64,000 bases of DNA from FCB group bacterium (GTDB taxonomy: Bacteria > Fidelibacterota > Marinisomatia > Marinisomatales > J089): contig JAADFQ010000237.1 of the NCBI GenBank assembly GCA_013152835.1, positions 138 through 64,137 of the forward strand, in the 5' to 3' direction. Shown here piece after piece: positions 1 to 26,852 of the stretch. The notes under the pieces are model-generated. The model was given only the letters and a program-made list of their open reading frames with translations, had not been told where the DNA came from and ran no database searches. The position numbers and the translations under genes were made by a program. Each line of letters starts with the position of its first letter. Position 1 is the stretch's first letter.

Positions 1-2
1 TG

Positions 3-905
3 GTCTGGCCAGCCCCTCCGGATACAGCAAAAATTCAACTAAGTCAAATACTGGTTTCTCCGTATTTGGAATCATCAACACCGGATTGGTATACCAAATT
101 TATGTCCATGATTCGTGGGAAAACGGAAAGACAATTTGTGCGACCAATGGGCCTGGATGTCCGGGAAAACCGGATTGCTGTAGCTGATCCGGGAGCGGGA
201 GGTGTCTTTGTAATTGATCGCCAAACCAAACAAACGCGATTCATGGCTAATCCTGAAAGTGAAAATGTTCCCATGGATGTAGCTTTCGGTGATCAAAATA
301 TTGCCGTAGTTCTGTCTCCTGAACCGCTAATTGCGATGTATGACCTGGAAGGAAATTGGTTACGAACAATCAACCTGAGCGGTACCGCAAAACGAATTAC
401 GGGCATTACGTTTTGGAGAAACCGGTTCATTATTGTAGACACTCAAGGACATAAAATTATCATTATTCATCCCAATGGAGATATCCTGAATACATTTGGT
501 TTCCGGGGGAAAGACAATGGTGCCTTCAACTTTCCCACCTTTGTAGCAGTTGATGAAAAAGGAACCATTTATATTACCGATACAATGAATTTCCGTGTCC
601 AGAGTCTTTCACAATCCGGTGCATGGAACCGGTCAATCGGGGCACATGGGATTGATGCCGGTCAATTTAACCGTCCCAAGGGTGTGGCGTTGGATGATCA
701 GGGTCGGATTTACATCATCGACAGCAGTTTCGATAATATTCAAATATTCAATCAAGAGGGTCGGTTCCTCATGCATTTCAGTTCCGCGGGCCATACAAAC
801 GGTGCCTTGTTAATGCCTACGGATATCGCCGTATCGGGGCGCGATATTATTGTATCCGATACTATGAACAGAAGAATCCAAATATTCCGGATGCTTTATG
901 AATAA
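3..905 (+). CDS. NHL-repeat beta-propeller protein, 5'-partial (frame open to window edge)
   Basis: There is no stop upstream of the TTG at 66 in this frame, so the gene probably starts before the window. NHL-type blades include FNFPTFVAVDEKGTIYITDTMNFRVQ, FNRPKGVALDDQGRIYIIDSSFDNIQIF and LLMPTDIAVSGRDIIVSDTMNRRIQIF. The stop overlaps the next start (ATGAATAA). Confidence 0.75.
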   Translation, partial: VWPAPPDTAKIQLSQILVSPYLESSTPDWYTKFMSMIRGKTERQFVRPMGLDVRENRIAVADPGAGGVFVIDRQTKQTRFMANPESENVPMDVAFGDQNIAVVLSPEPLIAMYDLEGNWLRTINLSGTAKRITGITFWRNRFIIVDTQGHKIIIIHPNGDILNTFGFRGKDNGAFNFPTFVAVDEKGTIYITDTMNFRVQSLSQSGAWNRSIGAHGIDAGQFNRPKGVALDDQGRIYIIDSSFDNIQIFNQEGRFLMHFSSAGHTNGALLMPTDIAVSGRDIIVSDTMNRRIQIFRMLYE

Positions 906-2559
906 ACAACAAATCATTACCCTTATCCTGACCACTTCTTTCCATCTGTGGGGACAAAGTATAATTTCAGAAACGAAACATAATTTATCGGTAAGCGGAC
1001 CGGGACAGTTAACGGCGACCGGTGAAACTGAAATTTGCATCTTTTGTCATGCAACCCATAACGGGTCCGGTGAAGCACCGCTTTGGAATCGGTCATCCGC
1101 AAGTACAACGTACACGATGTACGGTAGCCCTTCCATGACTGGGAACAGCCAGCAACCGGGAGTTTCATCCCGACTTTGTCTTAGTTGCCACGATGGGACC
1201 GTTGCTCTGGGTTTAGTGTTGAATCGGAGCGACCCCATCGCCTTCCCCCTGGGTATGGATAAAATACCGGCTGGTTACCGAACCAATCTCTCCGACAATT
1301 TAGCCGATGATCATCCTCTGAATCTGGATACTCACCCAACGGGAGAACTTTCCTGTAATGGATGTCATGACCTGCACGGGAACAATGGAATGGTATCGAA
1401 ACCATTGGAGTGTTCCTCCTGCCATGATGCTCATGACAATACGTACGGAAAATTTTTAAAGACCAATCCGATTCAGGGAGGTGTTTGCGCTTTATGTCAT
1501 GATAAGGTGAATTGGACCACGAGTACGCACTCTTCTTCGTCCGCAACCTGGAATGGGACCGGCCCCGATCCCTGGCCTTATTCCGATTGGACCACGGTAG
1601 CCGATAATGCGTGTTATAACTGTCATGTATCCCATGGGAGTGCAAGTCAGTACTGGTTATTAAAATCCAGTGCAGAGGAAGATAATTGCCTTGTATGCCA
1701 TAACGGAAATGTAGGTGTGGATATTCAGTCCGAACTACTTAAATCATCAACGCATCCGGTCGAGGATTATACCGGAATCCATGCGCCGGAAGAGGATCCT
1801 CAAACCATGGTTCCTCACGTGGAATGTACGGATTGTCATAATCCGCACCAGGTTTCAGGAGCCTCGGGAACGGCGCCCAATATTACCGGCGCCGAACAGG
1901 GTCTTCCCGGTATCAATACCTATGGCTCACCGGTAGAGCCTGCGACTAATGAGTATGAGATCTGTTTAAAATGCCATGACACCAATCTGGCAACCATACC
2001 AACCTATGTACCGCGACTGGATAATGCGGGCAGCATCCGCCTGGAATTCGCGGAAACCAATGCTTCGTTCCATCCGGTTTTTGCCCAAGGAAAAAATTCA
2101 GATGTTCCCTCATTGTTAAATCCCTGGACGGAAACGTCAATTATGTATTGTACGGATTGCCACAATAACAATTCCATTTCGGGCGGTGCGCCCAATGGTC
2201 CTCATGGATCAGCTTATGCGCCACTGTTAAAAAAACAAATGACATTTACTGACAATAATTCGGAGAACTCTTCCCTGTATGCTTCCTGTTACGATTGTCA
2301 TGACCGTTCAAAAATTCTCAACAAGACGATGGGTATGAGATTCAAAATACATGATAGACATGTTGTACGGGAGAAAACGGCTTGTACCACCTGCCATGAT
2401 CCCCATGGGTCGGTGAATAACAAACATTTAATTAATTTTAATACGGATTATGTATCGCCCAATCGTGATGGAGAATTACGCTGGGAAGACCGTGGAAACA
2501 ACCGGGGCGCCTGTTATCTGAAATGCCATGGTGAGGATCACCGTCCGAAAAGTTATTAG
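898..2559 (+). CDS. multihaem c-type cytochrome (12 CXXCH + 1 CXXXCH)
   Basis: The N-terminus is hydrophobic (IITLILTTSFHLWG). Haem motifs are CIFCH, CLSCH, CNGCH, CSSCH, CALCH, CYNCH, CLVCH, CTDCH, CLKCH, CTDCH, CYDCH and CTTCH, plus CYLKCH. Frequent CXXCHxxH spacing is typical of Geobacter-type paired-CXXCH cytochromes. Confidence 0.9.
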   Translation: MNKQQIITLILTTSFHLWGQSIISETKHNLSVSGPGQLTATGETEICIFCHATHNGSGEAPLWNRSSASTTYTMYGSPSMTGNSQQPGVSSRLCLSCHDGTVALGLVLNRSDPIAFPLGMDKIPAGYRTNLSDNLADDHPLNLDTHPTGELSCNGCHDLHGNNGMVSKPLECSSCHDAHDNTYGKFLKTNPIQGGVCALCHDKVNWTTSTHSSSSATWNGTGPDPWPYSDWTTVADNACYNCHVSHGSASQYWLLKSSAEEDNCLVCHNGNVGVDIQSELLKSSTHPVEDYTGIHAPEEDPQTMVPHVECTDCHNPHQVSGASGTAPNITGAEQGLPGINTYGSPVEPATNEYEICLKCHDTNLATIPTYVPRLDNAGSIRLEFAETNASFHPVFAQGKNSDVPSLLNPWTETSIMYCTDCHNNNSISGGAPNGPHGSAYAPLLKKQMTFTDNNSENSSLYASCYDCHDRSKILNKTMGMRFKIHDRHVVREKTACTTCHDPHGSVNNKHLINFNTDYVSPNRDGELRWEDRGNNRGACYLKCHGEDHRPKSY

Positions 2560-2568: not shown

Positions 2569-3864
2569 ATGAAACAAACCATACTGCTTTCCATAATTAT
2601 GGCCATTATGATTGTTCCGGGATTTACCCAGGATTGTACGTCCGGCGGATGCCACAACGATATTGCGATTAAAAAGAATATCCACGTTCCGGTGGATGAA
2701 GCCGATTGTTTGACTTGTCATAAACAGAATAAACGGAACCATCCGGGTGGGCGGGGAACTGAGATCGGACTTGTCTCTAAGAATATTGAGTCTATCTGTA
2801 CCACTTGCCACGAGGTAGATACATCGGAAAAGGATCTGCATCCGCCGGTTGCCGATGGATCGTGCACGGTTTGTCATGATCCACACCAGAGCGATCAGAA
2901 CTTTTTACTCAAGGGTAACACGGCGGCCGACGTATGCAGTGACTGTCATGATACCGGTTCCAGGGATAAGGAATTTGTCCATGGCCCGGTTGCCGTCGGC
3001 GCCTGTGATATTTGTCATTCCGGTCACGGCAACCTGAAAAATACATTGTTGAAAAAAGCCGATGTGAACAGTACCTGCTATCAATGTCATGAATTAAAGT
3101 CCGAGGAAATAGCTTCCCTGAGCAATAAACACGCTCCCGTAGAAGAATCGTGTTCCAATTGTCATAATCCCCATGAATCGGATATCAAGTACCAACTGGA
3201 AGAATCGGTGCCGGATTTATGTATGGGTTGTCATAGTGAAATTGAAGAGAAAAACAGCAAGGGGAAATCACATCATCAGGCGTTGGATATGGATGATTCC
3301 TGTTTGAATTGCCATTTACCCCATGGATCGCAATTTGAAAAAAATCTTCGGGAAGAACCCTTTGACCTGTGTATGACTTGTCATAATAAACCCATGAAAT
3401 TAGGAAAAACAACCATTCCTAATATGAAATCGTTTTTGAAAAAAAATCCTGATTGGCACGGACCAATACGGGAAAAGAATTGTGCCGGTTGTCATGATCC
3501 TCATGGAACGGATAATATCCGGTTATTAAAGTTTTATTATCCGGAAAAATTTTATTCAAAGTTCAATATCGACCAATATCAACTTTGTTTTCAATGTCAT
3601 CCTTCGGAAAATGTTTTGGATCAGAATACGATTAAATTGACCAATTTTCGTGATGGTGACCGTAACCTCCATTACTTACATGTGAATCGGGAGAAGGGCC
3701 GGACCTGCCGTGCCTGTCACCAAACTCATGCATCCACCAAACCATTTCATATTCGGGAAGCGGTTCCCTTCGGTGAATGGCAATTACCTATCAATTATAC
3801 GCCGAAGGAAGACGGTGGGAGTTGTCAGCCGGGATGTCATAAACTGCAAGAGTATACCCGCTAA
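2569..3864 (+). CDS. multihaem c-type cytochrome (13 CXXCH + CX4CH + CX3CH)
   Basis: Signal peptide MKQTILLSIIMAIMIVPGFTQ. CTSGGCH is followed by CLTCH, CTTCH, CTVCH, CSDCH, CDICH, CYQCH, CSNCH, CMGCH, CLNCH, CMTCH, CAGCH, CFQCH and CRACH, with a terminal CQPGCH. Units of the form CxxCHxPHxS...LL recur (c7/c3-like repeats). Confidence 0.9.
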   Translation: MKQTILLSIIMAIMIVPGFTQDCTSGGCHNDIAIKKNIHVPVDEADCLTCHKQNKRNHPGGRGTEIGLVSKNIESICTTCHEVDTSEKDLHPPVADGSCTVCHDPHQSDQNFLLKGNTAADVCSDCHDTGSRDKEFVHGPVAVGACDICHSGHGNLKNTLLKKADVNSTCYQCHELKSEEIASLSNKHAPVEESCSNCHNPHESDIKYQLEESVPDLCMGCHSEIEEKNSKGKSHHQALDMDDSCLNCHLPHGSQFEKNLREEPFDLCMTCHNKPMKLGKTTIPNMKSFLKKNPDWHGPIREKNCAGCHDPHGTDNIRLLKFYYPEKFYSKFNIDQYQLCFQCHPSENVLDQNTIKLTNFRDGDRNLHYLHVNREKGRTCRACHQTHASTKPFHIREAVPFGEWQLPINYTPKEDGGSCQPGCHKLQEYTR

Positions 3865-3870: not shown

Positions 3871-4947
3871 ATGATGCCCTGTCCGAAATATTTGCGGTTT
3901 ATCCAAACACCGCATCAACTGTTCGGGATGTCGTTTCCGGGCAATGGAAATCGGAACCGCAGGCCTTACCCACGGAGTTCCATCGCTGGAATCTGGATAC
4001 TCAGTTTGTTACTCACCGGATTGTGTTCAGCCCAACCGGAAACGGAACGTTCCAAGGCCGGTCGCCGATGGTTATTGGGAGACCAGCTCCCCGATTCAAC
4101 CTGGGCGGTTGTTACAGATCAACTGGATTCCACGTCGGAAGATACCTTGGTATTGGTCATTTTTACGCGGCAAAATCATCCGTATTCATTCAGCTTTATG
4201 GAGGCTCTGGGTAAATTTCTCCCCTCGCCGGTGAAAAAACGTTTATCGATAGTGGAAGTCATCACTCCGAGTCGGGGTACTGTTTTGAATTCACAATTGT
4301 CTCATGAATTTCCGTTGATTGATGATACGTCGCATATACTTTACGATCAATTCGGTGTTCGCGTTTTCCCAACTTTATTTGTGGTATCGCCGAAAGGCAA
4401 ATTATTGCATTATCTACCAGGATTTACACCGACGCTAAAAACCCATCTATCGGAAATATTGGCGCCATATTTTCCTGATGACCTTAGTCAACCTATATCT
4501 GTGCATTATACTAAAAGCGATAAAAAACGGATACGGAAAGAGGATTTGGCACGGAAACTTTATTTTTCAGCTCGCTATGATCTGGCGCGGTTTCAACTCG
4601 AGACATTGGATTCGCTTACTTCCGATGGTATCATTCTATTGGGAATGACTTATCTCAAACTCGAGTCCTGGAATCAGGCGGATTCGGTCTTTCGATCCCT
4701 GCCGGATCAGGCTCCCTACATCGGGTATCGGAATCTAGGTCGTGGATTGGTGGCTTATCGTCTGGGAGCTTTTGATCAGGCCTGGGATTTCTTATCGGCC
4801 ATCGGAAGTTTGCCGGAGATGTACCGGGTTCATTATTGGCGGGGAATTGTGGCGCAATCGCTGCACCGGGATTCAGTCGCCGTTGAAGAATATAAAAAGA
4901 GCGCCCAACAGGCTGCAGGAAAACAAGCTCAACAATTATTACCTTAA
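3871..4947 (+). CDS. secreted thioredoxin-fold-like / TPR protein (no CXXC)
   Basis: Signal-like segment IAGIWILSLLLTGLCSAQ; an alternative start is M20 at 3928. The TlpA/redoxin-like stretch VLVIFTRQNHPYSFSFMEAL...FPTLFVVSPKGKLL lacks the redox CXXC. The C-terminal half is TPR-like (LGMTYLKLESWNQADSVF..., YRNLGRGLVAYRLGAFDQAW...). Confidence 0.5.
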   Translation: MMPCPKYLRFIQTPHQLFGMSFPGNGNRNRRPYPRSSIAGIWILSLLLTGLCSAQPETERSKAGRRWLLGDQLPDSTWAVVTDQLDSTSEDTLVLVIFTRQNHPYSFSFMEALGKFLPSPVKKRLSIVEVITPSRGTVLNSQLSHEFPLIDDTSHILYDQFGVRVFPTLFVVSPKGKLLHYLPGFTPTLKTHLSEILAPYFPDDLSQPISVHYTKSDKKRIRKEDLARKLYFSARYDLARFQLETLDSLTSDGIILLGMTYLKLESWNQADSVFRSLPDQAPYIGYRNLGRGLVAYRLGAFDQAWDFLSAIGSLPEMYRVHYWRGIVAQSLHRDSVAVEEYKKSAQQAAGKQAQQLLP

Positions 4948-4958: not shown

Positions 4959-6452
4959 ATGAAATTTCGTTCATTTAAAAATATGACCTGGCGCAGCAGG
5001 ATGATCATTGTGGCCCTGACCATCCTTTTTATTTTTGGGAGTGTGGCCACGGTCATGATCAACCAGGTACGGGAAAAACATTTCCATCAATATATGGTTG
5101 AATTGGTTCGCCCGATGGAAACCCTGATTCATAATAATATTATTCATAACATGGAGAACCATCAACCAAACCATTTTCAAAGTATTTTGGAGGGTTTATC
5201 CACCAACGACAAAATTCGATGGGTCCGGGTTTTGGACCGGGATTTTCGCGTCGTGTTCGCTGATGATTCTTCCATGGTGGGAGAGGTCGCATCGATCCCC
5301 ACGTTATACCAACCTAAACTGGCACGTGCGAATCTGGTTGCCTATACTATCGAAGATTCAGTTCCAATTCTTAGAATCGTATCAAAGATACTGAATGAAC
5401 CATCCTGTCAACCCTGCCACGGCAGTACTGCCCCCGTAAATGGATACATCGAAATCGGTATGAATGATTCCCCTGAAGTCAAAGTCGAAACGATGATGCT
5501 GCGCTATGATTTTATATCATTCTTCCTATTTATTACCGTGTTATCGGTCATATTAGGAATAGTGCATAATCGGACCTTCCAAAAACCTCTCACGGAACTG
5601 AAGGCGAGTATCCAACAGATTGAATCAGGTGATTTTTCGACCCGGGTAAAACTGGATACACCGGGTGAATTACGCGGCCTGGCGGAAACAATATCTCGAA
5701 TGACCGAGCAGTTGGAGAAATCAAAACATGAGGTGGATAAGCTTCACCAAAACCAGATTGAACGTGCAGGTCAATTGGCCAGTGTAGGCGAACTGGCTGC
5801 CAGTGTGGCTCACGAAATTAAAAATCCAATCGCGGGAATCCGGAATGCATTAGAAATTCTTTTGGACCGGGATTACCGCCTGCGCAAAGACCCCATATAT
5901 AAGGAAATGTTATTTCAAATTAACCGGGTTACAAAAACAATCAATGATCTGATGGACTATGCGAAACCGCGCGAACCCCATTTTCAGGAAGTGGAGTTAC
6001 ATTCGATTTTGGAACAGGTGATTGCCTTGCAACGTCCCAAAATAGCCAGTGAACAAATTCAATTAACGGTAGCGTTGGCTTCCTCTCACTCCGTGGTAAA
6101 TGGCGATATTGATTTATTGAAACAAATATTTGCCAATCTGATATTGAACGCTTACCAGGCGACTGAGAAGGGGAAAGGAGATCGCATATCCATAACTACG
6201 GAATATTTACCCGGGAAAAAGCGTATCAGAATCTCCGTGAAAAATACCGGGAGCTGGATTCCTAAGGATTTGATGGATCTCATTTTTAAACCTTTTTATA
6301 CTACCAAACATAAAGGCACCGGGCTGGGGTTGTCGCTGACAAAATCCTTTGTTGAGAAACACGGCGGTACAATTACGGTGAACAGTTCTCCGGAACATTG
6401 GACCGAGTTTCTGGTTGAGTTGCCTGTTCAAACAAAAGGGGGTGTGTCATGA
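4959..6452 (+). CDS. sensor histidine kinase with periplasmic CXXCH (haem c) motif
   Basis: Two TM segments (aa ~15-35 and ~185-205) flank a ~150-aa loop containing CQPCH (nt 5406-5420). A HAMP-like linker follows, then the HisKA H-box SVAHEIKNPIAGI and an HATPase_c domain (TKHKGTGLGLSL). Confidence 0.85.
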   Translation: MKFRSFKNMTWRSRMIIVALTILFIFGSVATVMINQVREKHFHQYMVELVRPMETLIHNNIIHNMENHQPNHFQSILEGLSTNDKIRWVRVLDRDFRVVFADDSSMVGEVASIPTLYQPKLARANLVAYTIEDSVPILRIVSKILNEPSCQPCHGSTAPVNGYIEIGMNDSPEVKVETMMLRYDFISFFLFITVLSVILGIVHNRTFQKPLTELKASIQQIESGDFSTRVKLDTPGELRGLAETISRMTEQLEKSKHEVDKLHQNQIERAGQLASVGELAASVAHEIKNPIAGIRNALEILLDRDYRLRKDPIYKEMLFQINRVTKTINDLMDYAKPREPHFQEVELHSILEQVIALQRPKIASEQIQLTVALASSHSVVNGDIDLLKQIFANLILNAYQATEKGKGDRISITTEYLPGKKRIRISVKNTGSWIPKDLMDLIFKPFYTTKHKGTGLGLSLTKSFVEKHGGTITVNSSPEHWTEFLVELPVQTKGGVS

Positions 6453-7834
6453 CCAATGCAAGAGCGCTGATAATCGAAGATGAAAAACTGGTTGCCTGGT
6501 CATTATCCGAACATCTGAAAAAGATGGGATTTGTTACAACAATGTTGGAATACGGAAAACCGGGGATTGAACAGGCATTGAAGGATCCCCCGGATGTGAT
6601 CTTTATGGATTATCGTCTTCCCGATACTAATGGAATTGAGATTTTACGCCAGTTACAGCCTATTCGGGATGAATCGATCTTTTTCTTTATGACGGCCTAT
6701 GGTACGGAAGAAGTCTCCATCGAAGCGCTTAAACTGGGTGCCCGGGAATACCTGAACAAACCGGTGAATTTTGATGAAATCACGGTAATGGTCAGCCGGG
6801 CAATGAAGGAAAAAGAAAAATCCAAAGAAATATCGATCCTCAAACAACAGGAAGAACAACGCTATCAGTTGGGCAACTACATCAGTCAATCCAAGAAAAT
6901 GCGTGATGTCATGGAAACCGCCCAGAAATTGGTTCAAACGGATACGGGAACGATTCTGTTGTTAGGCGAAACCGGAACCGGAAAAGATACTCTCGCCAGG
7001 GTTCTCCATGAGCAAGGTCCCCGGAAACATAAACCGTTTATTATTGTAAATTGTGCTTCATTATCGGAAAACCTGTTGGAAAGCGAATTGTTCGGATACG
7101 AAAAAGGTGCCTTTACCGATGCGAAAACCCGAAAACAGGGACAGGTGGAATTCGCCAACGGGGGTACCATCCTGTTGGACGAAATTGGTGAAATACCGAT
7201 CGGATTCCAGGCCAAACTTTTACGATTTATCGAGACACAATCATTTTATCGTGTAGGAGGGACAAGGGAATTGAAAGTGAATGTCCGGATTATTGCCTCC
7301 ACGAACCGGGACCTGGAACAGGAAATTACCGAGGGTAATTTCAGGGAAGATCTGTATTATCGTCTGAATGTTATTACTTTGGTTTTACCTCCCCTGAGGA
7401 AACGTAAAGAGGATATTCCGCTTTTGGTGAATCGATTTATTGATTTATTCAATGCGGAGTTCGGTCGCTCTGTGAAGGGTATTTCGAAACCGGCGCTGGA
7501 TTTGATTTCCGGGTATTCCTGGCCTGGTAATGTGCGTGAATTAAAAAATGCATTGGAGCGAATATTCTTACTCGAACATGCGAATATTATCGAACCCTGG
7601 CATTTACCCGCTCATATCCAATCCTCTTCAAGAACTGACGGGATGGAGGTTCACCCGGAGGCGACCGGAGGAATGAAAACGGTTTTTGACGGAAAAAGTT
7701 GGGATGATATGGAATCCATGATTGTTCAATGGGCTTTAAAGGAAGAAAAGGGTAATCAGGTCCATGCTGCCAAGCGGCTGAAAATATCCCGGGACCAAAT
7801 CCGTTATAAAATGAAAAAGCACGGGCTCTTGTAA
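6449..7834 (+). CDS. sigma-54-dependent response regulator (NtrC family)
   Basis: The ATGA start overlaps the kinase stop. REC domain with acceptor Asp context VIFMDYRLPD. AAA+ domain with GETGTGKDTLA, a GAFTDA variant of the GAFTGA loop and ESELFGYEKGAFT. C-terminal Fis-type HTH (AAKRLKISRDQIRYKMKKHGL). Confidence 0.9.
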   Translation: MTNARALIIEDEKLVAWSLSEHLKKMGFVTTMLEYGKPGIEQALKDPPDVIFMDYRLPDTNGIEILRQLQPIRDESIFFFMTAYGTEEVSIEALKLGAREYLNKPVNFDEITVMVSRAMKEKEKSKEISILKQQEEQRYQLGNYISQSKKMRDVMETAQKLVQTDTGTILLLGETGTGKDTLARVLHEQGPRKHKPFIIVNCASLSENLLESELFGYEKGAFTDAKTRKQGQVEFANGGTILLDEIGEIPIGFQAKLLRFIETQSFYRVGGTRELKVNVRIIASTNRDLEQEITEGNFREDLYYRLNVITLVLPPLRKRKEDIPLLVNRFIDLFNAEFGRSVKGISKPALDLISGYSWPGNVRELKNALERIFLLEHANIIEPWHLPAHIQSSSRTDGMEVHPEATGGMKTVFDGKSWDDMESMIVQWALKEEKGNQVHAAKRLKISRDQIRYKMKKHGLL

Positions 7835-8035: not shown

Positions 8036-8051
8036 TGGCACGGAGTTTGAT
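8036..8051 (+). promoter_or_regulatory. sigma-54 (-24/-12) promoter candidate
   Basis: TGGCAC-GGAGT-TTGAT matches TGGCAC-N5-TTGCW except at the final GC. It lies ~58 nt upstream of the tetrahaem cytochrome ATG and directly downstream of a sigma-54 activator gene. Confidence 0.6.
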
Positions 8052-8108: not shown

Positions 8109-8729
8109 ATGCGTACCTTAAAAGTTATAACCACCAGCCTGATCATGTTGGGAGCTCTTTCCGCGCAGACAATTGCCGGTTCCGATCACGATTTCAGTAA
8201 CAAAAGCTGGAATAACACCGGTGAAATCTGTGCCGTTTGTCATACACCTCATAATGCTGAAACTGGAGTGAATGGTGCCCCTCTCTGGAATCACCAGGTG
8301 ACGACCAGTAATTTTACAACTTATACATCTTCAACACTAGATGCGACTACTGTTGGTCAACCGGACGGCGCTTCAAAACTTTGCTTATCCTGTCATGACG
8401 GTACAGTGGCTTTGGATAACTTCAGCGGAAAAACCAATGGTACTGAATTTTTAACAGGTAACAAGAATTTCGGAACCGATCTAAGTAATGATCATCCGAT
8501 TTCATTTACGTATGATGCGACTCTTGCCAGTACTGATGGGGAATTAAATGACCCAACAACAGAAAACAGTGGATTGGGTGGAACCATCACTGCTGACTTG
8601 CTTATCGGTGGGAAAATGGAATGCGCTTCCTGCCATGACGTCCACAATACGGTGGCTGTGAGTGGAACCAAGCTTTTGGTAATATCCAATAACAATAGTG
8701 CTCTCTGCCTGACCTGCCACGCGAAATAA
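8109..8729 (+). CDS. secreted tetrahaem c-type cytochrome
   Basis: ATG at 8109 preceded by AAGGA (the ORF track starts at the upstream TTG at 8088). Signal peptide MRTLKVITTSLIMLGALSAQTIAG. Haem motifs CAVCH, CLSCH, CASCH and CLTCH; 9 His in total. The protein ends ...CLTCHAK. Confidence 0.85.
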   Translation: MRTLKVITTSLIMLGALSAQTIAGSDHDFSNKSWNNTGEICAVCHTPHNAETGVNGAPLWNHQVTTSNFTTYTSSTLDATTVGQPDGASKLCLSCHDGTVALDNFSGKTNGTEFLTGNKNFGTDLSNDHPISFTYDATLASTDGELNDPTTENSGLGGTITADLLIGGKMECASCHDVHNTVAVSGTKLLVISNNNSALCLTCHAK

Positions 8730-8750
8730 CTGATCATTTATAGTTGTTTA

Positions 8751-8789
8751 AAGCCCTCGTTCTCATCTGGGAGCGGGGGCTTTTGTTTT
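8751..8789 (+). terminator. rho-independent terminator
   Basis: AAGCCCTCG (8751-8759) pairs with CGGGGGCTT (8774-8782) with one G-U pair, followed by TTTTGTTTT. Confidence 0.7.
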
Positions 8790-9029: not shown

Positions 9030-12000
9030 ATGCCACGCATACTATTTATTGATGATCATCAAGAAACGCTGACTACCCTCAAAAGTATAATTCGAAAAGA
9101 ATTCCAGGATGTGAAACTGGTTTCAGCAAACAGTGGTGAGGATGGTCTTGCTTATGTATCCGAAACCATTCCGGATATTATCATCCTGAATGTCGCTCTT
9201 CCCGGGATCGATGGTTTTGAAGTTTGTCGCCGACTGCGTGCAAATCCCGCAACAACTGCGATCCCCATTATAATTCTTACCGGCGTCCATTTATCATCCC
9301 GGGATAAAATCGAGGGGTTACATGCCGGGGCAGATGTGTATTTGTCCAAGCCTGTTGAACCTGGCGAATTGGTTTCCCAGGTACGTGCCATGCTGCGAAT
9401 AAAATTGGCGGAAGATCAAATTCGTAAATATCAAAACAATATAGAAAACAAAGTCCGGGAACAATCAAAACAAGTATTAGAAAATGAATTTCGATTCCGA
9501 TTATTATATGACAATTTAAGTGTGGGATTATACCGAACGACTCTGGACGGAAAAATTTTATTAGCCAACCAGGCAATGATTGATCTTCTGGGATATTCAT
9601 CCTTTGCAGATTTTGCTAAACGGAATTTGAATACGGAAGGTTATGAACCGGGATACGATCGTTCAATATTTATTGAACGTTTAAGACAAGAAGGTCATAT
9701 TCAAGGTAATGAGGTTACTTGGACGCGTAAGAACGGGACCCGAATTTATATTCGGGAAAATGCATATTTAGTCCGTGATCAGAGCGGTGATATCGTATAC
9801 ATTGAAGGGACGATAGAAGATATAACCAGGGAAAAAGAAAGCCGGCTGGCCCTTCAGGAGGAACGACAATTGTTCCGCTCGGGTCCCATGGTCATTTTTC
9901 GCTGGCTGGCCGGCGATGAGCGCATTCCTATAAATTACGTTTCACCCAATGTAGAATCTCTCTATGGTTATTCTGTTCAGCAACTGATTCAGGGTGAACT
10001 ACATTATTCCGATATCATACATCCTGATGATCTGGAACGGGTGGTTGCGGAAGTACAAGAACATGTCCTCGCCGGAGAAACGCATTTCAGCCAGCGCTAC
10101 AGGATTCTGGATGCGCAAGGTGATTCGCGATGGGTTCATGATTTGACCACCGTTGTTCGGGATAAACAGGGACAGGTTACATCCTATATCGGGTATATCA
10201 CTGATATTACCGCCATGGTTTCTCTCAGTAAAGAACTGGAGCAGAAGGACCGAATAATCCGTAATGTGTTAAAACAGGCCTTAGAGGGGATTATGGTTAC
10301 GGATGAAACTGGCAATATCGTGGAGTGGAGCCAGGGCATGGAAGAAATAACTGGTGTTTCGGCTGATGAAGTTCTCGGTCAACCGGCCTGGGAAATACAG
10401 GCCGGATTTGCCGATCATGACCGGGTATCCAAAGATCAGGTAACAAATCTGGAAAACCTGATCACAACAATTTTGGAGACCGGAGAAGTCCCTGATATTT
10501 ACCAGTTAATCCTGATTCCGATAAAAAGAAAAAACGGTGAGAAAAGAGTTATTCAACAGGTCTTGTCCACCTACAAAACCGAATCGGGATACGGACTGAT
10601 CGGCTTTCTCCTGGATGAAACCAAGGCAGTTCAAACGGCTCGGGAGTTGGAAGAAACTCAGAAGCGATATGAAACCCTGTTTCAGGCTTCTCCGGATGGG
10701 TTTATTCTTGAAGACAGCCACGGGAACATCCTGGATTGTAATCCCGCTTCCTGCGAAATCCTGGGATATAGCCGGGATGAAATGATCGGGATGAATGTTG
10801 TTGAAATTGCCGATTCCGAAAGCAAATCGGAGGTGCGGTCCAATATTCAGACAATCCTGGAAACCGGGTATTTAAGTCATGAGGTAGAAAACCAGCGGGG
10901 GGACGGGACTTGGATTACACTGGAACTCCACGAAGTGAAAGTACCCCTGCCCAACGGTGAAGATGGTATTCTGGTGATTCACCGGGATGTCACGGAACGG
11001 AAACGTGTGGAAAAAGAATTGCGCAAGCGGGATCGGATCCTTTCCGTTATTACCAATGCGGCGGAAGAGGTCTTACGGGCACAATCCTGGTTTGATTGCG
11101 TGGAATCGATACTGGCCAATATAGGTCAGGCCGTTGGTGCCACCCGGGTTACATTATTCGAAAATCAGAAATCAGAATCCGATCTACTATTCGCTAAAGT
11201 ATGGGGTCGATGGGCTGCCCGGGGATTCGCCCGGAAACATCGTAAAACCGCCCGGTCGTTTAAGGACCTGGGTTTTGAACCGTGGAGCAGTCAGCTTAAT
11301 AACGGAGAAAAAATTACTGCCCGGATTTCGGAAACGAAAAACCAATCCTATTTTGAAATCAATAAATCAAAAAGTGTATTAATTATTCCCATCCTTGCCG
11401 GATCGGAATGGTGGGGAATCCTGAGTTTTGATGACCACCGATCCGAACGTAGGTGGTCCGAAATGGAGGTGGAATCACTGACCATTGCTGCTAACCTTTT
11501 GGGGACCTCCATCCAGAGGGATATATCCGATGCGGCGCTGAGACGCCTGGCTGAAAGTGTATCGACTACTCCCGAAGAAACATTTTTTGAGTCGTTGGTT
11601 TTGGAACTAAACGAAGTGTTGGGATGTGATTTTGCTTTTGTAGGTGAATTGAATGCTCAGGATCCGGGCCAGATACAAACTATTGCTTTTGTTCAGGACG
11701 GCGAACTGAAACCAAATTTCATCTTTAATATGAAAGAAACACCCTGCGAAAATGTCGTTGGGAAAGAATACTGCCAATGTGTGGAAGACGTTCGGCGCAA
11801 ATTTCCCAGGGATACGTTTCTTCAGGAATGGGAAATTGATAGTTTCTATGGAATGCCTCTGTTTGCCGGAGGGAATAACCAGTTGGGTATTATAGCGGTC
11901 ATGTCCCGGCAGACGATAAAAAACGAGCATCTGGTAGAATCCCTGCTGAAAGTATTTGCCGACCGGGCCGGGTCCGAACTGGAGCGACGCCGAGCCTATG

Positions 12001-14651
12001 AAAAACTGCGTGAATCGGAGGAGAAATTCCGCCTATCCTTCAAAACCAGCCCGGATGCAGTAAACATTAATCGCTTATCCGACGGATTGTACGTGGAAAT
12101 CAATGACGGATTTACTGCCTTAACCGGATATACCTGGGATGATGTTCAGGGGAAAACTTCCGTGGAACTTAAAATCTGGGCAGATTTGGAAGATCGGAAA
12201 AAGTTGGTGAGGGCATTAAGAAAGGACGGTATCGTAGAAAACCTGGAAGCTCGATTCCGTTTTCGGGACGGCTCACTGCATACGGGTCTCATGTCAGCTC
12301 GGGTGATCACGATGCATAACGAGCCTCATATCCTATCCATTACCAGAGATATCGAAGACCGCAAACAGGCGGAACTGCTGGTCATTGAAAGTGAAACACG
12401 ATACCGGAAATTGGTGGATCAGGCTCCTGTGGCCATTGGGATTCATGCGCAGGGTGTCTGGAGATTTATCAATGCGGAAGGGGTCCGGTTGATGGGATTT
12501 GAACATTATAACGAACTCATCGGGCAGCCGGTTCTGAATATTATGCATCCCGATAGTCGTGAACTTGCCCTAAAACGTATTCAACATATGATGAAAACCG
12601 GAGAACCGCTTCCGCTGATCGAGGAAAAATTATTACGAAGAGATGGTGCGACGGTTTATGCCCTGGTAACTTCAACACCAATTCAATTTAAAGGGGAACA
12701 AGCTTATCAAGTTATTGCCATGGATATCACGGCTTTAAAAGTAGCGGAAAGTGAAATCCAAATTCTGAATGAAGCCGTGGAACAGAGTCCGTCAACCGTT
12801 ATGATCACGGATCTTGAAGGGAATATCGAATATGTGAACCCGAAATTTTCGGAAGTCACGGGTTGGAGCAGTGATGAGGTAATTGGGGAAAATGCAAACT
12901 TGTTAAAATCCGGTCACACATCCGCAAAAGAATATGAGCAAATGTGGAAGACAATTACCGATGGCAAAACCTGGTATGGGGAATTTCACAATAAACGCAA
13001 GGACGGGAGTTTATATTGGGAACAGGCCAGCATATCGCCGGTCGTTGATTCCGAAGGTGTGGTGCAGCATTTCCTGGCAGTGAAGGAGGACATTACCGAA
13101 AAGAAAGAGACTCGGGCCAGGCTGGAAGAAAGCGAAGCAAAATTTCGTTCAATTTTTGAAGAATCCCTGGACACCATCTATCTCGGTACTGTCGATGGTC
13201 GGATTTTGGATATTAACCCCGCAGGTGAAGCATTATTCGGCTATACACGGAAAGAATTATTGAAAATGGATGCCCGGCGATTTTACCGGGGTTCCGGCGA
13301 CCGGGAAACTTTTGTTGGGCGGATACAAAAAGATGGTTATGTCCGTGATTATAAATTGACGCTACGGAAAAAGGACGGATCGGAAATGATTTGTCTGGTC
13401 AACGCCAAGGTGATCGGTGCCCGGGAAGATGGTACCCAGGTCATTTCCGGGTTAATTCACGATATTACGAAACAGGAAAAGGATCGGTTCCGTCTTCAGG
13501 AAGCGTTGAAAAAAGCACAGGAGGGGGAACGAGTAAAAACGCTCTTTTTAGCCAACATGTCCCATGAAATCCGCACGCCTCTGAATTCGGTGTTGGGGTT
13601 TGTAGAATTACTCCGTAAAGATGATTCCATTGAATCTCCGGAAGAGCGGAATGAAGTTATCGATATTATTCAAGCCAGCGGTCAGCGTCTGATGCGTACG
13701 GTCCATGAGATCCTGGATATTTCCCAGATTGAAGCGGGGACATTTTCCCTGAATCCGGAAGACCTGGACCTGAATGAGATTATAAATCAAGTGGTGAAGG
13801 AACATAATGCCACAATTAAAATGCGTGGCCTGGAATTGATTAATCTTTCAGAAGTCCGAAAACCGGTTATCCATGCAGACCGGGAAAGTATATTAAAGGC
13901 GATTTCAAATCTTGTGGATAACGCAATTAAATATACTCCATCCGGTACTATTCATATTCATTTAAAGTCCGAAAGAGGCCAATTTATCCTCACAATTAAA
14001 GACACCGGAATCGGAATCTCAAAGGAATACATGAAACACATGTACGACGTTTTTTCACAGGAAAGTTCCGGTTTTACGAAAAAATACCAGGGTCTGGGTC
14101 TGGGATTATCCATTACCAAGCGTTGTCTGGATATGAATTCGGTTCCTGTCACTGTAGAGAGCCAGAAAGATGTCGGCACTACTTTTACGTTGGAATTCAC
14201 ACCTGCGCAACCGGTTTCCAAACAGGGAATAGGCGTTGCGGAAGGATCCGGGAAAGAAGATCCGGCGTCTGAAGGTATATTAGGAGATGTACTGGTCGTA
14301 GAAGATGATCCATCGTCTCAATTACTGATGGAATATTTTCTTAAATCCCGTTATCAATTATACTATGCCGTTAGTGTCCAGGAAGCAAAAGAAGTATTAC
14401 GAAAAATTAAACCTCAGGTAGTACTGCTGGATCTTTCCCTGGCCGGTAACGAGGATGGTCTTAATCTGGTTCGGGTTATGCGAAAGAAAAAAAAGTGGAG
14501 TACGATTCCCGTTATTGCGTTGACGGCCCATGTTTTCGTTACCGACCGCGATCGTTGTCTCAAGGCCGGTTGTAACGATTATTTATCCAAACCGGTCAGG
14601 CAGTCCGTCCTTCTTGATAAAATACGACGATTAAATGTTGAGGAGGACTAA
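9030..14651 (+). CDS. giant hybrid sensor histidine kinase (pseudo-REC, multiple PAS/PAC and GAF, HisKA, HATPase, REC)
   Basis: The N-terminal receiver-like domain has Asn at the acceptor position (PDIIILNVALPGIDG). There are many PAS/PAC-like units (for example ...IEGTIEDITREK, ...GYITDITAMV, ...VIHRDVTERKRVE, ...SITRDIEDRKQAE, ...LAVKEDITEKKETR, ...GLIHDITKQEKDR) and GAF-like regions. H-box MSHEIRTPLNSV, an HATPase domain (QGLGLGLSI), and a C-terminal REC (VVLLDLSLAGNEDG). Confidence 0.9.
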   Translation: MPRILFIDDHQETLTTLKSIIRKEFQDVKLVSANSGEDGLAYVSETIPDIIILNVALPGIDGFEVCRRLRANPATTAIPIIILTGVHLSSRDKIEGLHAGADVYLSKPVEPGELVSQVRAMLRIKLAEDQIRKYQNNIENKVREQSKQVLENEFRFRLLYDNLSVGLYRTTLDGKILLANQAMIDLLGYSSFADFAKRNLNTEGYEPGYDRSIFIERLRQEGHIQGNEVTWTRKNGTRIYIRENAYLVRDQSGDIVYIEGTIEDITREKESRLALQEERQLFRSGPMVIFRWLAGDERIPINYVSPNVESLYGYSVQQLIQGELHYSDIIHPDDLERVVAEVQEHVLAGETHFSQRYRILDAQGDSRWVHDLTTVVRDKQGQVTSYIGYITDITAMVSLSKELEQKDRIIRNVLKQALEGIMVTDETGNIVEWSQGMEEITGVSADEVLGQPAWEIQAGFADHDRVSKDQVTNLENLITTILETGEVPDIYQLILIPIKRKNGEKRVIQQVLSTYKTESGYGLIGFLLDETKAVQTARELEETQKRYETLFQASPDGFILEDSHGNILDCNPASCEILGYSRDEMIGMNVVEIADSESKSEVRSNIQTILETGYLSHEVENQRGDGTWITLELHEVKVPLPNGEDGILVIHRDVTERKRVEKELRKRDRILSVITNAAEEVLRAQSWFDCVESILANIGQAVGATRVTLFENQKSESDLLFAKVWGRWAARGFARKHRKTARSFKDLGFEPWSSQLNNGEKITARISETKNQSYFEINKSKSVLIIPILAGSEWWGILSFDDHRSERRWSEMEVESLTIAANLLGTSIQRDISDAALRRLAESVSTTPEETFFESLVLELNEVLGCDFAFVGELNAQDPGQIQTIAFVQDGELKPNFIFNMKETPCENVVGKEYCQCVEDVRRKFPRDTFLQEWEIDSFYGMPLFAGGNNQLGIIAVMSRQTIKNEHLVESLLKVFADRAGSELERRRAYEKLRESEEKFRLSFKTSPDAVNINRLSDGLYVEINDGFTALTGYTWDDVQGKTSVELKIWADLEDRKKLVRALRKDGIVENLEARFRFRDGSLHTGLMSARVITMHNEPHILSITRDIEDRKQAELLVIESETRYRKLVDQAPVAIGIHAQGVWRFINAEGVRLMGFEHYNELIGQPVLNIMHPDSRELALKRIQHMMKTGEPLPLIEEKLLRRDGATVYALVTSTPIQFKGEQAYQVIAMDITALKVAESEIQILNEAVEQSPSTVMITDLEGNIEYVNPKFSEVTGWSSDEVIGENANLLKSGHTSAKEYEQMWKTITDGKTWYGEFHNKRKDGSLYWEQASISPVVDSEGVVQHFLAVKEDITEKKETRARLEESEAKFRSIFEESLDTIYLGTVDGRILDINPAGEALFGYTRKELLKMDARRFYRGSGDRETFVGRIQKDGYVRDYKLTLRKKDGSEMICLVNAKVIGAREDGTQVISGLIHDITKQEKDRFRLQEALKKAQEGERVKTLFLANMSHEIRTPLNSVLGFVELLRKDDSIESPEERNEVIDIIQASGQRLMRTVHEILDISQIEAGTFSLNPEDLDLNEIINQVVKEHNATIKMRGLELINLSEVRKPVIHADRESILKAISNLVDNAIKYTPSGTIHIHLKSERGQFILTIKDTGIGISKEYMKHMYDVFSQESSGFTKKYQGLGLGLSITKRCLDMNSVPVTVESQKDVGTTFTLEFTPAQPVSKQGIGVAEGSGKEDPASEGILGDVLVVEDDPSSQLLMEYFLKSRYQLYYAVSVQEAKEVLRKIKPQVVLLDLSLAGNEDGLNLVRVMRKKKKWSTIPVIALTAHVFVTDRDRCLKAGCNDYLSKPVRQSVLLDKIRRLNVEED

Positions 14652-26610: not shown

Positions 26611-26852
26611 GGAATTAAGATAGAAACTAAAGCACTCTTTATTTAATCGCAACCCCACAGGTCACATGAAAATCAAATCAACACAAGGGCTGAAAGAAGG
26701 TAAGCGTCGAAGATCAAAAGGAAAAATTCATAAGTTATGATTTACTGTTTTACCCACTCGCTATTTTATCGGAACTTGTTTTAATTCGGTTTTCCACCTC
26801 CCCGTTGATGAATTGTTATGAACGGCGCTAAAAATGAAACCACCATTACGTC

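Follow-up and report, generated by a model that had tools for sequence, protein, structure and literature searches.

An OmcE-family tetrahaem cytochrome from an FCB group bacterium as a candidate subunit of a cytochrome filament

The 5' part of the window, that is, of the whole 64,000-nucleotide stretch of FCB group DNA analysed here, carries a series of forward-strand genes for a beta-propeller protein, multihaem cytochromes and a two-component regulatory pair. The first (1..905) is an NHL-repeat beta-propeller gene of the NHL1 type, which is truncated at the 5' end because the window starts within it, and whose stop codon overlaps the start of the next gene. The latter (898..2559) encodes a large cytochrome of 553 aa with 12 CxxCH motifs and a conserved C-terminal CX3CH, and is followed at 2569..3864 by the gene of a 431-aa, 13-CxxCH cytochrome related to MtrA and DmsE (match to 6R2Q chain A at E=1.7e-19; match to the DmsE-family model at E=4e-39, under that model's cut-off). 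This MtrA-like protein is likely to be a barrel-inserted electron conduit. Next come the genes for a TPR or weakly thioredoxin-like protein (3871..4947), whose conservation is limited to the Marinimicrobia-type form of the cluster, a sensor histidine kinase (4959..6452) and an NtrC-type sigma-54-dependent response regulator (6449..7834) with the receiver, Sigma54_activat and HTH_8 domains assigned from the Pfam matches of its orthologues. The gene of a small tetrahaem cytochrome, the main subject of this analysis, lies at 8109..8729.

The tetrahaem protein consists of 206 aa, counted from an ATG start. Its translation contains four haem motifs, CAVCH, CLSCH, CASCH and CLTCH (C41/C44/H45, C92/C95/H96, C172/C175/H176 and C200/C203/H204), and the distal histidines are H48, H129 and H179 together with H27 in the N-terminal arm. 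A Sec-type signal, MRTLKVITTSLIMLGALSA|QT, recognised by eye and devoid of a lipobox Cys, occupies approximately residues 1-19 (8109-8165) and leaves the mature N-terminal arm QTIAGSD-H27. At the opposite end, the protein terminates with CLTCHAK, so that a tail of only two residues, AK, extends past the last CxxCH, as is the case in 72 of the 75 family members aligned. An earlier, sequence-only reading of this DNA had described a small tetrahaem with a signal peptide, nine His and the CLTCHAK end, all of which are present in the ORF. Among 56 close homologues, no variation occurs in the four CxxCH motifs or at the His positions corresponding to H27, H48, H129 and H179.

A sequence search of the PDB with the tetrahaem protein yields full-length matches (residues 2-206) to the filaments of Geobacter sulfurreducens (7TFS, E=1.3e-24) and Desulfuromonas soudanensis (9YUQ, E=1e-24), both identified as OmcE filaments (PMC12954529; bioRxiv 10.1101/2025.10.22.684050). 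With a family profile, the E-values drop to 2.4e-36 for 7TFS and 4.3e-34 for 9YUQ, and no other PDB chain is matched even at E<=10. Thus, at this threshold, the c3 and c7 structures, the octahaem OmcZ and the archaeal tetrahaem ECNs (PcECN, 8E5F, and AvECN, 8E5G) give no matches, and no chain of OmcS, a hexahaem protein as opposed to the four CxxCH here, is found by sequence or by profile. The sequence-only reading had pointed to the layout of Omc-type filament cytochromes, recalling OmcS in particular, and had named alignment to OmcS, OmcE, OmcZ and archaeal ECNs as the check, with lack of detectable homology to filament cytochromes as the outcome that would count against it. Homology to filament cytochromes is indeed detectable, over the full length, for OmcE; the suggested resemblance to OmcS lacks sequence support, and no sequence match links the protein to OmcZ or the archaeal ECNs at E<=10.

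In a MAFFT multiple alignment, the tetrahaem protein and OmcE are 40% identical. The authors of the 9YUQ structure describe a conserved OmcE set of four CxxCH and conserved distal His, and in our alignment of nine sequences, spanning OmcE, DsOmcE, the window protein, the corresponding module of the large cytochrome and FCB homologues, the 12 residues of the CxxCH motifs and the His equivalent to H27, H48, H129 and H179 are all invariant. Blocks outside the haem sites are shared as well, namely I-x4-HD[LF]S, APLWN, Y72, QP..SKLCLSCHDG, LSNDHP and the terminal CH-x-K. Judged by these sequence relationships, the product of 8109-8729 is a member of the OmcE family, and at 40% identity the OmcE fold is expected for it; an AlphaFold2 model built without haems from a 56-sequence alignment is poor (pLDDT 51.8). 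Among the Pfam families, Cytochrome_C7 scores 34.5 bits (cut-off 24.8) and covers only residues 29-102, in two pieces, whereas Cytochrom_CIII, at 17.7, stays under its cut-off of 22.9, and both are best read as generic haem-motif matches.

The tetrahaem protein is also related to the N-terminal module (approximately 205 aa) of the 12-CxxCH large cytochrome, as had been noticed by eye. BLASTP aligns the two with 32% identity over 176 aa (E=4e-21; residues 45-203 of the large protein), and for the same pair in orthologues, the identity rises to 38-39% and the E-values reach 7e-40 to 5e-42. The by-eye alignment identified the module relation correctly but mispaired one motif: ECASCHDVHNT of the tetrahaem corresponds to ECSSCHDAHDN of the large cytochrome, not to SCNGCHDLHGN, where CNGCH represents an additional haem site, inserted in only about 5% of 65 orthologues. 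Residues ~20-203 of the large cytochrome make up an OmcE-like module that matches 7TFS at E=5.4e-26, with the alignment reaching the last residue of OmcE. This module has a free N-terminal arm His of its own, H28, and its last haem motif is followed in cis by another His (H201-x9-H211), with further haem motifs in the remainder of the protein. Orthologues of the large cytochrome occur in loci of Verrucomicrobiota and Acidobacteriota (L068 and L041). Both the free arm His and CH-x9-H are retained in 65 of 65 orthologues. Such a combination of a free arm His with a cis cap makes sense only if the arm His act in trans.

Natural fusions of OmcE-like modules provide a measure of the spacing involved. 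In the fused relatives, 9 of the 10 internal arm His are located 6-9 residues past a CxxCH, according to the pattern CxxCH-x(6-9)-His. In the stand-alone tetrahaem, the 2-residue tail and the 7-residue arm add up to 9, a value within the fusion spacing and equal to the spacing in the 65 large-cytochrome orthologues, and the arm His is invariant; these observations would fit an interfacial haem ligated by His in trans. The spacing rule, the tail-plus-arm sum of the stand-alone proteins and the cis-capped module of the large cytochrome, all derived from sequence comparison, appear to be new here.

The nine His for four haems had been taken as compatible with bis-His ligation of all haems. The count is correct, but it does not imply that the ninth His, H62, is a spare ligand. 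H62, part of the WNH motif, is invariant in the close homologues (56/56), and across the broader family, the WNx position is occupied by His in 50 of 75 members and by Arg or Lys in 18 of 75, the two solved OmcE among these. Specifically, the multiple alignment places Arg at this position in OmcE, DsOmcE and the module of the large cytochrome, and H62 is kept in fused modules that also retain the linking His. Together, these two patterns argue that H62 is not an axial ligand, and we consider it unlikely in this capacity, be it in a monomer or in a chain-ending 'stopper'.

The tetrahaem gene has its own regulatory signals. A sigma-54-type -24/-12 promoter element, TGGCACGGAGTTTGA, is located on the forward strand at 8036..8050, 59 nt before the ATG and directly 3' of the NtrC-type activator gene, in agreement with the sigma-54 control postulated in the sequence-only reading. 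The pattern TGGCAC-N5-TTGM has its sole match in the 64 kb window at this site (0.16 expected by chance; at least one match in 14 of 100 shuffles). When the upstream regions of four loci are aligned, conservation is confined to a single block, GGCAY-N5-TTTG, and the strict promoter pattern precedes 19 of 76 omcE-like genes, compared with 0.006 expected per region. Downstream, 21 nt past the stop codon, there is a hairpin resembling an intrinsic terminator, with a stem of 15 pairs and a T-run (8750..8783, forward strand), which makes the tetrahaem gene a single-gene transcription unit. The sensor kinase contains a single conserved CxxCH (C150) in a predicted periplasmic loop between two TM segments, which makes it a candidate c-haem redox sensor; this motif is kept in five sigma-54-type loci and is absent from the kinases that are paired with GerE-type regulators. 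With the sensor kinase, the sigma-54 activator, the promoter and the terminator, the tetrahaem gene forms a single-gene unit under separate regulation.

The published minimal omcE cluster consists of two multihaem cytochromes, two beta-propeller lipoproteins, OmcE and a large barrel, and a nanowire-type context has been defined by a beta-propeller lipoprotein, multihaem cytochromes and a large outer-membrane (OM) beta-barrel in the vicinity (bioRxiv 10.1101/2025.10.22.684050). Within the window, one propeller and two multihaem cytochromes are found beside the tetrahaem gene. The barrel, the second propeller (a lipoprotein) and a pentahaem cytochrome fall past the 5' edge of the window and contig and are known from syntenic relatives at <=80% identity; exact-sequence look-ups of the tetrahaem protein and of one other sequence matched no indexed contig, and the gene context as a whole is drawn from homologues at 65-80% identity. 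In two such loci (L091 and L092), the order is NHL2 lipoprotein, pentahaem, barrel of 631-650 aa, NHL1, large cytochrome, MtrA-like cytochrome, TPR protein, histidine kinase, response regulator and omcE-like gene. With the barrel, NHL2 and pentahaem contributed by the loci of relatives, the neighbourhood has the nanowire-type context, and the tetrahaem, large cytochrome, NHL protein and barrel are all present in 40 of 80 species loci. Among cultured bacteria, Lutibacter profundi LP1 (CP013355, locus L004) has this cluster.

In a model that is confident (pLDDT 82.6) although built from 8 sequences, the barrel of the relatives consists of beta structure throughout and resembles large OM barrels only, the best match being MtrB with a TM-score of 0.38. 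Two database searches yielded just 6-8 barrel homologues. An HMM built from 19 barrels found about 60 loci, with none of the Desulfuromonadia barrels among them. Homology to the barrels encoded beside omcE in Desulfuromonadia was rejected (hhalign probability 4%), and only the fold class is common.

Taken together, these data suggest, with a probability that we put at roughly 0.6, that 8109-8729 encodes a subunit of an OmcE-type cytochrome filament. Under this model, the tetrahaem subunits would be exported, loaded with haem and then polymerise head to tail outside the cell. His27 of the 7-residue N-terminal arm would serve as the distal ligand of the last haem of the preceding subunit (C200xxC203H204), and this ligation in trans would produce a continuous haem chain that electrons could reach via the barrel and the MtrA-like cytochrome. 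The large cytochrome would act as a terminal adaptor at the base or tip, through its OmcE-like module, whose arm His is free and whose last haem has its cap in cis. How much subunit is made would be governed by the haem-bearing periplasmic kinase and the sigma-54 activator, probably according to redox state. What cytochrome filaments do physiologically is itself a matter of dispute (PMC11077965).

The principal competing explanation, which we regard as unlikely, is that the tetrahaem is a soluble, non-polymerising carrier, periplasmic or loosely bound to the surface. Like PpcA, STC or cytochrome c3, it would carry electrons towards or away from the conduit of barrel and cytochrome, combining OmcE ancestry with a lack of OmcE assembly. 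The plain Sec signal, devoid of any recognisable outer-membrane export tag, would suit such a carrier, and so would the generic Pfam assignments (Cytochrome_C7 and also Paired_CXXCH) and the public annotation of homologues as 'cytochrome c3 family'. The family is, moreover, huge and phylogenetically broad (5059 clusters at 50% identity), and the 9YUQ authors warn that OmcE-like tetrahaems occur widely and need not all form filaments. The barrel, lacking homology to that of Desulfuromonadia, also fits, and the invariant H62 could complete the last haem and thereby render all four haems bis-His within one chain. Against a carrier stands the fact that the only relatives of solved structure are filaments, matched over the full length. 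The Arg that takes the place of H62 in both solved OmcE proteins and in the module of the large cytochrome, and the retention of H62 in fusions that keep the linking His, speak against completion of the last haem within the chain. The invariance of the arm His, the tail and arm lengths held to the fusion spacing, and the free arm His that the large cytochrome keeps in addition to its cis cap also favour the filament subunit.

A far less probable alternative is that, instead of being the major subunit of the filament, the protein is a minor component or a terminator ('stopper' or cap). The 9YUQ authors proposed a four-haem, nine-His OmcE-like protein as the ideal terminator, and the tetrahaem has exactly four haems and nine His; in addition, a division of labour would be possible in close relatives, where two diverged copies stand in tandem (58% and 80% identity to the window protein). 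However, nine His are the norm for the subfamily, as the WNx counts given above indicate. There is a single copy in the window, which must then be the main one, and its own promoter, terminator and single-gene unit suit an abundant structural subunit. As for similarity of both window proteins to OmcE through shared CxxCH and His motifs only, by convergence or low-complexity bias, multihaem cytochromes do yield many weak motif-driven matches, such as paired-CXXCH alignments and the spurious WD40 matches to the tetrahaem N-terminus in the PDB sequence search, but this explanation is effectively refuted by alignments collinear over ~200 residues that include non-haem blocks, and by the profile match to 7TFS with nothing beyond the OmcE filaments.

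Returning to the filament model, we tentatively propose, as a possibility that is hardly the favourite, a more specific role for the large cytochrome (898-2559), namely, that of a terminator or anchor of an OmcE-type filament. H28 of its module would dock on the filament end that exposes an unsatisfied last haem, and polymerisation would stop there, the equivalent haem of the module being pre-capped by H211 (CH-x9-H). The filament would thus be wired into eight more haem sites and, further on, into the MtrA-like/barrel conduit. If this is true, a single rule, that the arm His ligates the haem of the preceding CxxCH, would explain filament polarity, termination and the covalently pre-polymerised multi-module relatives, and would hold across at least 10 phyla, including abundant marine and sediment groups. 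The CxxCH-x(6-9)-His rule and the cis-capped module would offer a testable answer to the question, current in the field, of how filaments start, stop and are anchored.

Cytochrome nanowires have been solved for two bacterial species and two archaea, aside from three further filament types of G. sulfurreducens. No paper on the present homologues turned up in literature searches that combined OmcE with taxa of the FCB group, although such absence is not proof; within the literature searched, nanowires in FCB/Marinimicrobia have not previously been reported. In the latest survey, five phyla, all outside the FCB group, are listed as having OmcE homologues in a nanowire-type gene context. The window locus, along with some 40 species-level loci that have the full gene set, would extend the nanowire machinery to many more groups, including Marinimicrobia-like bacteria, Bacteroidota, Ignavibacteria/Chlorobiota, Calditrichota, Planctomycetota, Verrucomicrobiota, Woeseiaceae and further groups abundant in sediments and low-oxygen waters. 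Such an extension bears on the spread of long-range extracellular electron transfer, and the haem-bearing kinase with its sigma-54 activator would provide a handle on regulation. If the tetrahaem turns out to be a monomer of the periplasm, what remains is an ordinary multihaem carrier encoded in a porin-cytochrome cluster.

By their descriptions, two sets of clusters from uncultured non-proteobacterial phyla resemble the window cluster in combining syntenic multihaem cytochromes with outer-membrane porins: the EET clusters of Acidobacteriota and Verrucomicrobiota with 'OmcE-like' cytochromes (bioRxiv 10.64898/2026.05.27.727921) and the novel PCC clusters of Bacteroidetes and Verrucomicrobia (bioRxiv 10.1101/392027). 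Predicted structures in these preprints are called OmcE-like, MtrA-like and MtrC-like; neither a stand-alone tetrahaem as a candidate OmcE-family filament nor a CH-x(6-9)-His rule is described in their accessible parts. The MtrCAB system of Shewanella (6R2Q) is similar in that the 431-aa cytochrome matches MtrA and that MtrB is nearest to the barrel model. It differs in that the window cluster has no MtrC orthologue, that the barrel is not related to MtrB in sequence, and that the surface partner here would be the OmcE-module cytochrome together with the tetrahaem. Chaperone-usher pili and the pilin genes controlled by sigma-54 and PilS-PilR offer an analogy only, in which a small, separately transcribed subunit is encoded beside a two-component sigma-54 pair and a related co-encoded protein could terminate or anchor the polymer, a 'stopper' role that the 9YUQ authors also discuss; there is no homology, and assembly here would rest on His-haem ligation instead of strand complementation.

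The closest parallels are with genuine OmcE systems. OmcE of G. sulfurreducens (GSU0618, 7TFS) is likewise a tetrahaem of ~200-230 aa with a Sec signal, has the four CxxCH and the four distal His in the identical order and ends two residues past the last CxxCH. Differences include the change of the Arg in WNR of OmcE to His and the shorter surface loops of the window protein. DSOUD_2954 of D. soudanensis WTL (9YUQ), which forms bundled antiparallel nanowires, shares the eight ligand His, the two-residue C-tail and an N-terminal arm of 6-7 residues, and its minimal cluster is free of glycosylation genes, as is the window cluster, where the glycosyltransferase block adjoining the G. sulfurreducens gene has no counterpart. 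The omcE loci of Desulfuromonadia (L011, L012, L018 and L020) also include an adjoining NHL beta-propeller and an MtrA-like multihaem cytochrome, which are homologous to the window NHL1 propeller (32% identity, E=1.6e-34) and to the 431-aa cytochrome (37% identity, E=2e-61), respectively, and several of their omcE genes are preceded by a sigma-54-like promoter. Unlike these clusters, the one described here belongs to a Marinimicrobia-like MAG of the FCB group, embeds the pair of haem-sensor kinase and sigma-54 activator, adds the large cytochrome with the OmcE-like module and employs a barrel of a different family with no detectable homology. The 8-haem cytochrome of the Desulfuromonadia clusters was considered as a possible OmcE relative on account of its ...CxxCH-x-K end, but the pairwise similarity is at the level of motifs only (E=0.007).

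The 206-aa product of the tetrahaem gene at 8109-8729 (+) begins with a Sec-type N-terminus, MRTLKVITTSLIMLGALSA|QT, devoid of Cys, contains four CxxCH motifs and nine histidines, and ends in CLTCHAK, all of which agrees with the sequence-only reading. The public annotation of this very protein is 'cytochrome c3 family protein [FCB group bacterium]', and Pfam and NCBIfam searches yield generic haem-motif matches only (Paired_CXXCH and Cytochrome_C7, with decahaem models below threshold); the predicted structure is of too poor a quality for use. Residues 18-56, comprising the signal peptide and the N-terminal arm, give repeated PDB matches to designed WD40/WRAP-T propellers (E=1e-9 to 0.15) that are made of pieces of ~6 bits each, and this homology was rejected as a repeat-summing artefact. 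The proposal that the tetrahaem is a stand-alone counterpart of the N-terminal module of the 12-CxxCH large cytochrome is borne out: the likeness is real because the BLASTP match to residues 45-203 of the large protein reaches E=4e-21 (32% identity over 176 aa). The by-eye alignment behind that proposal was correct in the overall relation but not in the pairing of ECASCHDVHNT, whose true partner is ECSSCHDAHDN; in the large cytochrome, CNGCH is an inserted motif that only ~5% of the 65 orthologues have.

Searches against the sequences of solved structures place the tetrahaem with OmcE. The window protein is matched over its whole length by 7tfs_A (232 aa, E=1.3e-24), from the Geobacter sulfurreducens OmcE filament (PMC12954529), and by 9yuq_N (218 aa, E=1e-24), from a nanowire bundle of an OmcE homologue of Desulfuromonas soudanensis WTL (bioRxiv 10.1101/2025.10.22.684050). 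A family profile built from 56 homologues and run against the PDB matched the two OmcE chains at E=2.4e-36 and 4.3e-34 and nothing else at E<=10. The suggested likeness to filament cytochromes accordingly stands for OmcE (profile E=2.4e-36) and is unsupported by sequence for OmcS, for which there is no match at E<=10; the comparison with OmcZ and archaeal filament cytochromes likewise produced zero PDB matches at that threshold. Because the profile matches only OmcE chains, OmcS, OmcZ, the archaeal filaments, c3, c7 and STC are excluded, and the relationship, as judged by sequence, is specific to OmcE. In a multiple alignment of OmcE, the D. soudanensis protein, the window protein (40% identical to OmcE), the large-cytochrome N-module and FCB-group homologues, all haem Cys and His residues as well as H27, H48, H129 and H179 of the window protein are invariant, the same set that is reported to be conserved, 'four CxxCH and four other histidines' (bioRxiv 10.1101/2025.10.22.684050). 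We infer, with a probability of roughly 0.6, that the tetrahaem is a filament subunit that would polymerise, be exported and function as such.

Natural fusions among the relatives bear on how such subunits could be joined. The fusion P0121 contains five matched stretches, four of them identified as arm-bearing modules, whereas P0122, P0123, P0124 and P0126 contain two to four each; P0196 and P0123 have a haem domain of another kind N-terminal to the module. In all these fusions (P0121-P0124, P0126 and P0196), the modules follow one another head to tail with no linker besides the normal tail and arm, and some of the multi-module proteins carry beta-propeller-like or PKD-like regions after the modules. 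The multi-module fusions are, in effect, covalently pre-polymerised OmcE chains. In 9 of the 10 internal junctions, the arm histidine (H-D-[FL]-S) lies 6-9 residues, mostly 8 or 9, past the preceding CxxCH histidine, the spacing in the tenth being 17 residues. Virtually the same distance is obtained for stand-alone proteins when tail and arm are added: 2 residues of C-terminal tail (a length shared by 72 of 75 family members) plus 7 before His27 give 9 in the window protein, assuming cleavage after ALSA, and OmcE and its D. soudanensis homologue total 8-9 by eye. The simplest reading of these spacings is that the arm histidine would be the distal ligand of the haem on the immediately preceding CxxCH, in agreement with the OmcE filament, in which the interfacial haem is completed by a histidine of the adjacent subunit (PMC9473688, PMC12954529). 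In the fusions, the arm histidine would then ligate the haem of the preceding CxxCH in cis and, in stand-alone subunits, that of a neighbour in trans.

The large cytochrome can be viewed in the same light. Its OmcE-like module aligns through the very last residue of OmcE, His211 lies exactly 9 residues past His201, and both H211 and the free arm histidine H28 are conserved in all 65 orthologues, from many phyla. On the arm-histidine reading, this protein could join a filament end by donating H28 and would have no haem left open itself, which would fit the needs of a terminator or anchor at the base or the tip. The authors of the 9YUQ structure looked for a 'stopper' of this kind, which they expected to be co-encoded with the major subunit (bioRxiv 10.1101/2025.10.22.684050). 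The large cytochrome also carries a C-terminal CX3CH (CYLKCH, residues 539-544) that is 98% conserved among the 65 orthologues and, added to the CxxCH motifs, may bring the count to 13 haems in the window protein; most orthologues, having no CNGCH site, would reach 12.

The competing explanation, that the tetrahaem is a non-polymerising carrier, appears to us rather unlikely. The ninth histidine, H62 (motif WNH), is invariant in the 56 closest homologues and leaves room for a self-completed monomer, and members of so large a family need not all behave alike. Both solved OmcE proteins and the module of the large cytochrome have Arg at the H62 position, and 18 of 75 family members have either Arg or Lys there; since it varies among Arg, His and Lys, H62 would more likely pair with a haem propionate than serve as an axial ligand. 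What cytochrome filaments do physiologically is also under debate (PMC11077965).

The gene neighbourhood can be judged by the standard set for OmcE homologues, which are taken as likely nanowire subunits only when genes for a beta-propeller lipoprotein and a large outer-membrane barrel lie close by; the minimal Desulfuromonadia cluster consists of OmcE, one large barrel and two each of multihaem cytochromes and propeller lipoproteins (bioRxiv 10.1101/2025.10.22.684050). The window encodes, in order, an NHL propeller truncated by the window start (1-905, +), the large cytochrome (898-2559, +), whose start codon overlaps the propeller stop, a 431-aa cytochrome with 13 CxxCH (2569-3864, +), a 358-aa TPR protein (3871-4947, +), a histidine kinase (4959-6452, +), an NtrC-type sigma-54 activator (6449-7834, +) and, last, the omcE-like gene (8109-8729, +). 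The 431-aa cytochrome matches 6R2Q chain A (E=1.7e-19), which we take to be the MtrA subunit of the Mtr complex from Shewanella baltica; the label 'Cystathionine beta-synthase' attached to 6r2q_A in the match table is an apparent mislabel, 6r2q_B being labelled 'Structure of the Mtr complex'. The 358-aa protein, between the MtrA-like cytochrome and the kinase, has TPR and weak thioredoxin-like matches (AhpC/TSA, E=4e-4) and is conserved only in the Marinimicrobia-type arrangement (loci L001, L002, L091 and L092), where the tetrahaems of L001, L002 and L092 are 80% identical to that of the window and that of L091 is more distant. At the position upstream of the window edge, the syntenic relatives encode a second, lipobox-bearing NHL propeller, a pentahaem cytochrome and, without a Pfam match, a protein of 631-650 aa; P0271, of this class, is modelled by AlphaFold2 (pLDDT 82.6) as all-beta with ~30 long strands, and its Foldseek matches are large outer-membrane barrels only, the top one (TM-score 0.38) being MtrB of the Shewanella Mtr complex. 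Other FCB loci have an alternative order, namely NHL1, large cytochrome, kinase, regulator, one or two omcE-like genes, NHL2, pentahaem cytochrome, barrel and MtrA-like cytochrome. Among 80 species-level loci, an NHL propeller is found within 10 kb in 76, and tetrahaem, large cytochrome, propeller and P0271-type barrel family are all present in 40. The context is in kind that of a nanowire subunit; we infer the second propeller, the pentahaem cytochrome and the barrel from relatives, beyond the window.

Desulfuromonadia omcE clusters (L011, L012, L018 and L020) follow the order purD, purE, resB, ccsB, a 9-10-haem cytochrome, an 8-haem cytochrome, an NHL lipoprotein, omcE, a 737-766 aa barrel and glycosyltransferases. 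Their propeller and 9-10-haem cytochrome are homologous to the propeller and the MtrA-like cytochrome of the window (32% identity, E=1.6e-34, and 37% identity, E=2e-61, respectively), but their barrel has no detectable relation to the FCB-locus barrel and they lack a large OmcE-module cytochrome. These are two real architectural differences, and that in the barrel is a caveat to the filament-subunit reading. The 8-haem cytochrome (L011:7403-8395; L012:7459-8457; L018:7354-8370; L020:7460-8407) ends in LCQ[MF]CH[NKR]K, two residues past the last CxxCH, as in OmcE, and might offer its terminal haem, left open, to the OmcE arm histidine, the pairwise likeness to OmcE being at the motif level only (E=0.007).

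Sigma-54 control of the tetrahaem, also proposed from sequence, is supported by a predicted promoter at 8036-8050, 59 nt before the ATG, which is the sole match to TGGCAC-N5-TTGM in the 64 kb window (0.16 expected by chance). GGCAY-N5-TTTG is the only conserved block in the otherwise diverged upstream DNA of four loci with a sigma-54-type regulator, and 19 of 76 distinct omcE-like genes, Desulfuromonadia omcE genes included, are preceded by a strict version of the pattern (0.006 expected per region). A sigma-70-like promoter was sought for the omcE-like gene and not found; a 15-pair terminator hairpin lies 3' of its stop codon. The kinase, with transmembrane segments at about residues 12 and 180, has a single CxxCH (C150) in the predicted periplasmic loop between them, kept in all five kinases accompanied by sigma-54 activators (the window, L092, L091, L005 and L010); the PAS kinases with GerE-type regulators (L007 and L009) have none. 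This conserved motif makes it reasonable to regard the kinase as a candidate c-haem redox sensor that would govern expression of the subunit. Directly downstream of the omcE-like gene, a 1873-aa hybrid sensor kinase (9030-14651, +) with a receiver at each terminus and many PAS domains keeps the same position in L001 (1875 aa) and may be an additional regulator of the cluster.

More than 7700 homologues of the window protein were scored among 90% clusters, and an exhaustive search of 50%-identity clusters gave 5059 representatives, of which 510 reach E<=1e-30. When one genome per species was scanned, family matches came from at least 576 loci, and many of these matches are to the large-cytochrome N-module rather than to a stand-alone tetrahaem. 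Among the matches listed, those closest to the window protein belong to Candidatus Neomarinimicrobiota, Calditrichota, Ignavibacteria/Chlorobi and Lutibacter, and the scanned loci extend over Desulfuromonadales, Geobacter, Geothrix and other Acidobacteriota, Gammaproteobacteria (Woeseiaceae, Sedimenticola), Bacteroidota, Chlorobiota/Ignavibacteria, Calditrichota, Planctomycetota, Verrucomicrobiota, Nitrospiraceae, Myxococcota, Zixibacteria and others. OmcE homologues in a nanowire-type context are reported from Thermodesulfobacteriota, Pseudomonadota, Aquificota, Campylobacterota and Nitrospirota (bioRxiv 10.1101/2025.10.22.684050), and two other preprints mention 'OmcE-like' multihaem cytochromes in EET clusters of Acidobacteriota and Verrucomicrobiota (bioRxiv 10.64898/2026.05.27.727921) and novel porin-cytochrome clusters in Bacteroidetes and Verrucomicrobia (bioRxiv 10.1101/392027). 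In a literature search on OmcE and FCB-group taxa, we found neither an assignment of the FCB tetrahaems to the OmcE family nor a description of the spacing rule between CxxCH and the arm histidine. The FCB locus shows a variant of the cluster architecture and suggests one new mechanism of OmcE-type assembly that can be tested.

The window has a single omcE-like copy; many relatives have a second, diverged one directly downstream (L001:10156-10767; L005:10731-11366; L010:10701-11357), 48-60% identical to the window protein and, in the Caldithrix-like form, without the ninth histidine (PIWSS), so that a split into major and minor subunits is possible in two-copy relatives. The window also contains genes resembling those of type IV pili or type II secretion at 24997-26658 (-), 49497-51146 (-) and 57385-60405 (-), whose products are a protein of 554 aa that bears a methylation motif at its N-terminus, an ATPase of the PilB/GspE type and a PilM-PilN fusion; according to one proposal, export of OmcS and OmcZ in Geobacter is aided by a pilin-based apparatus.
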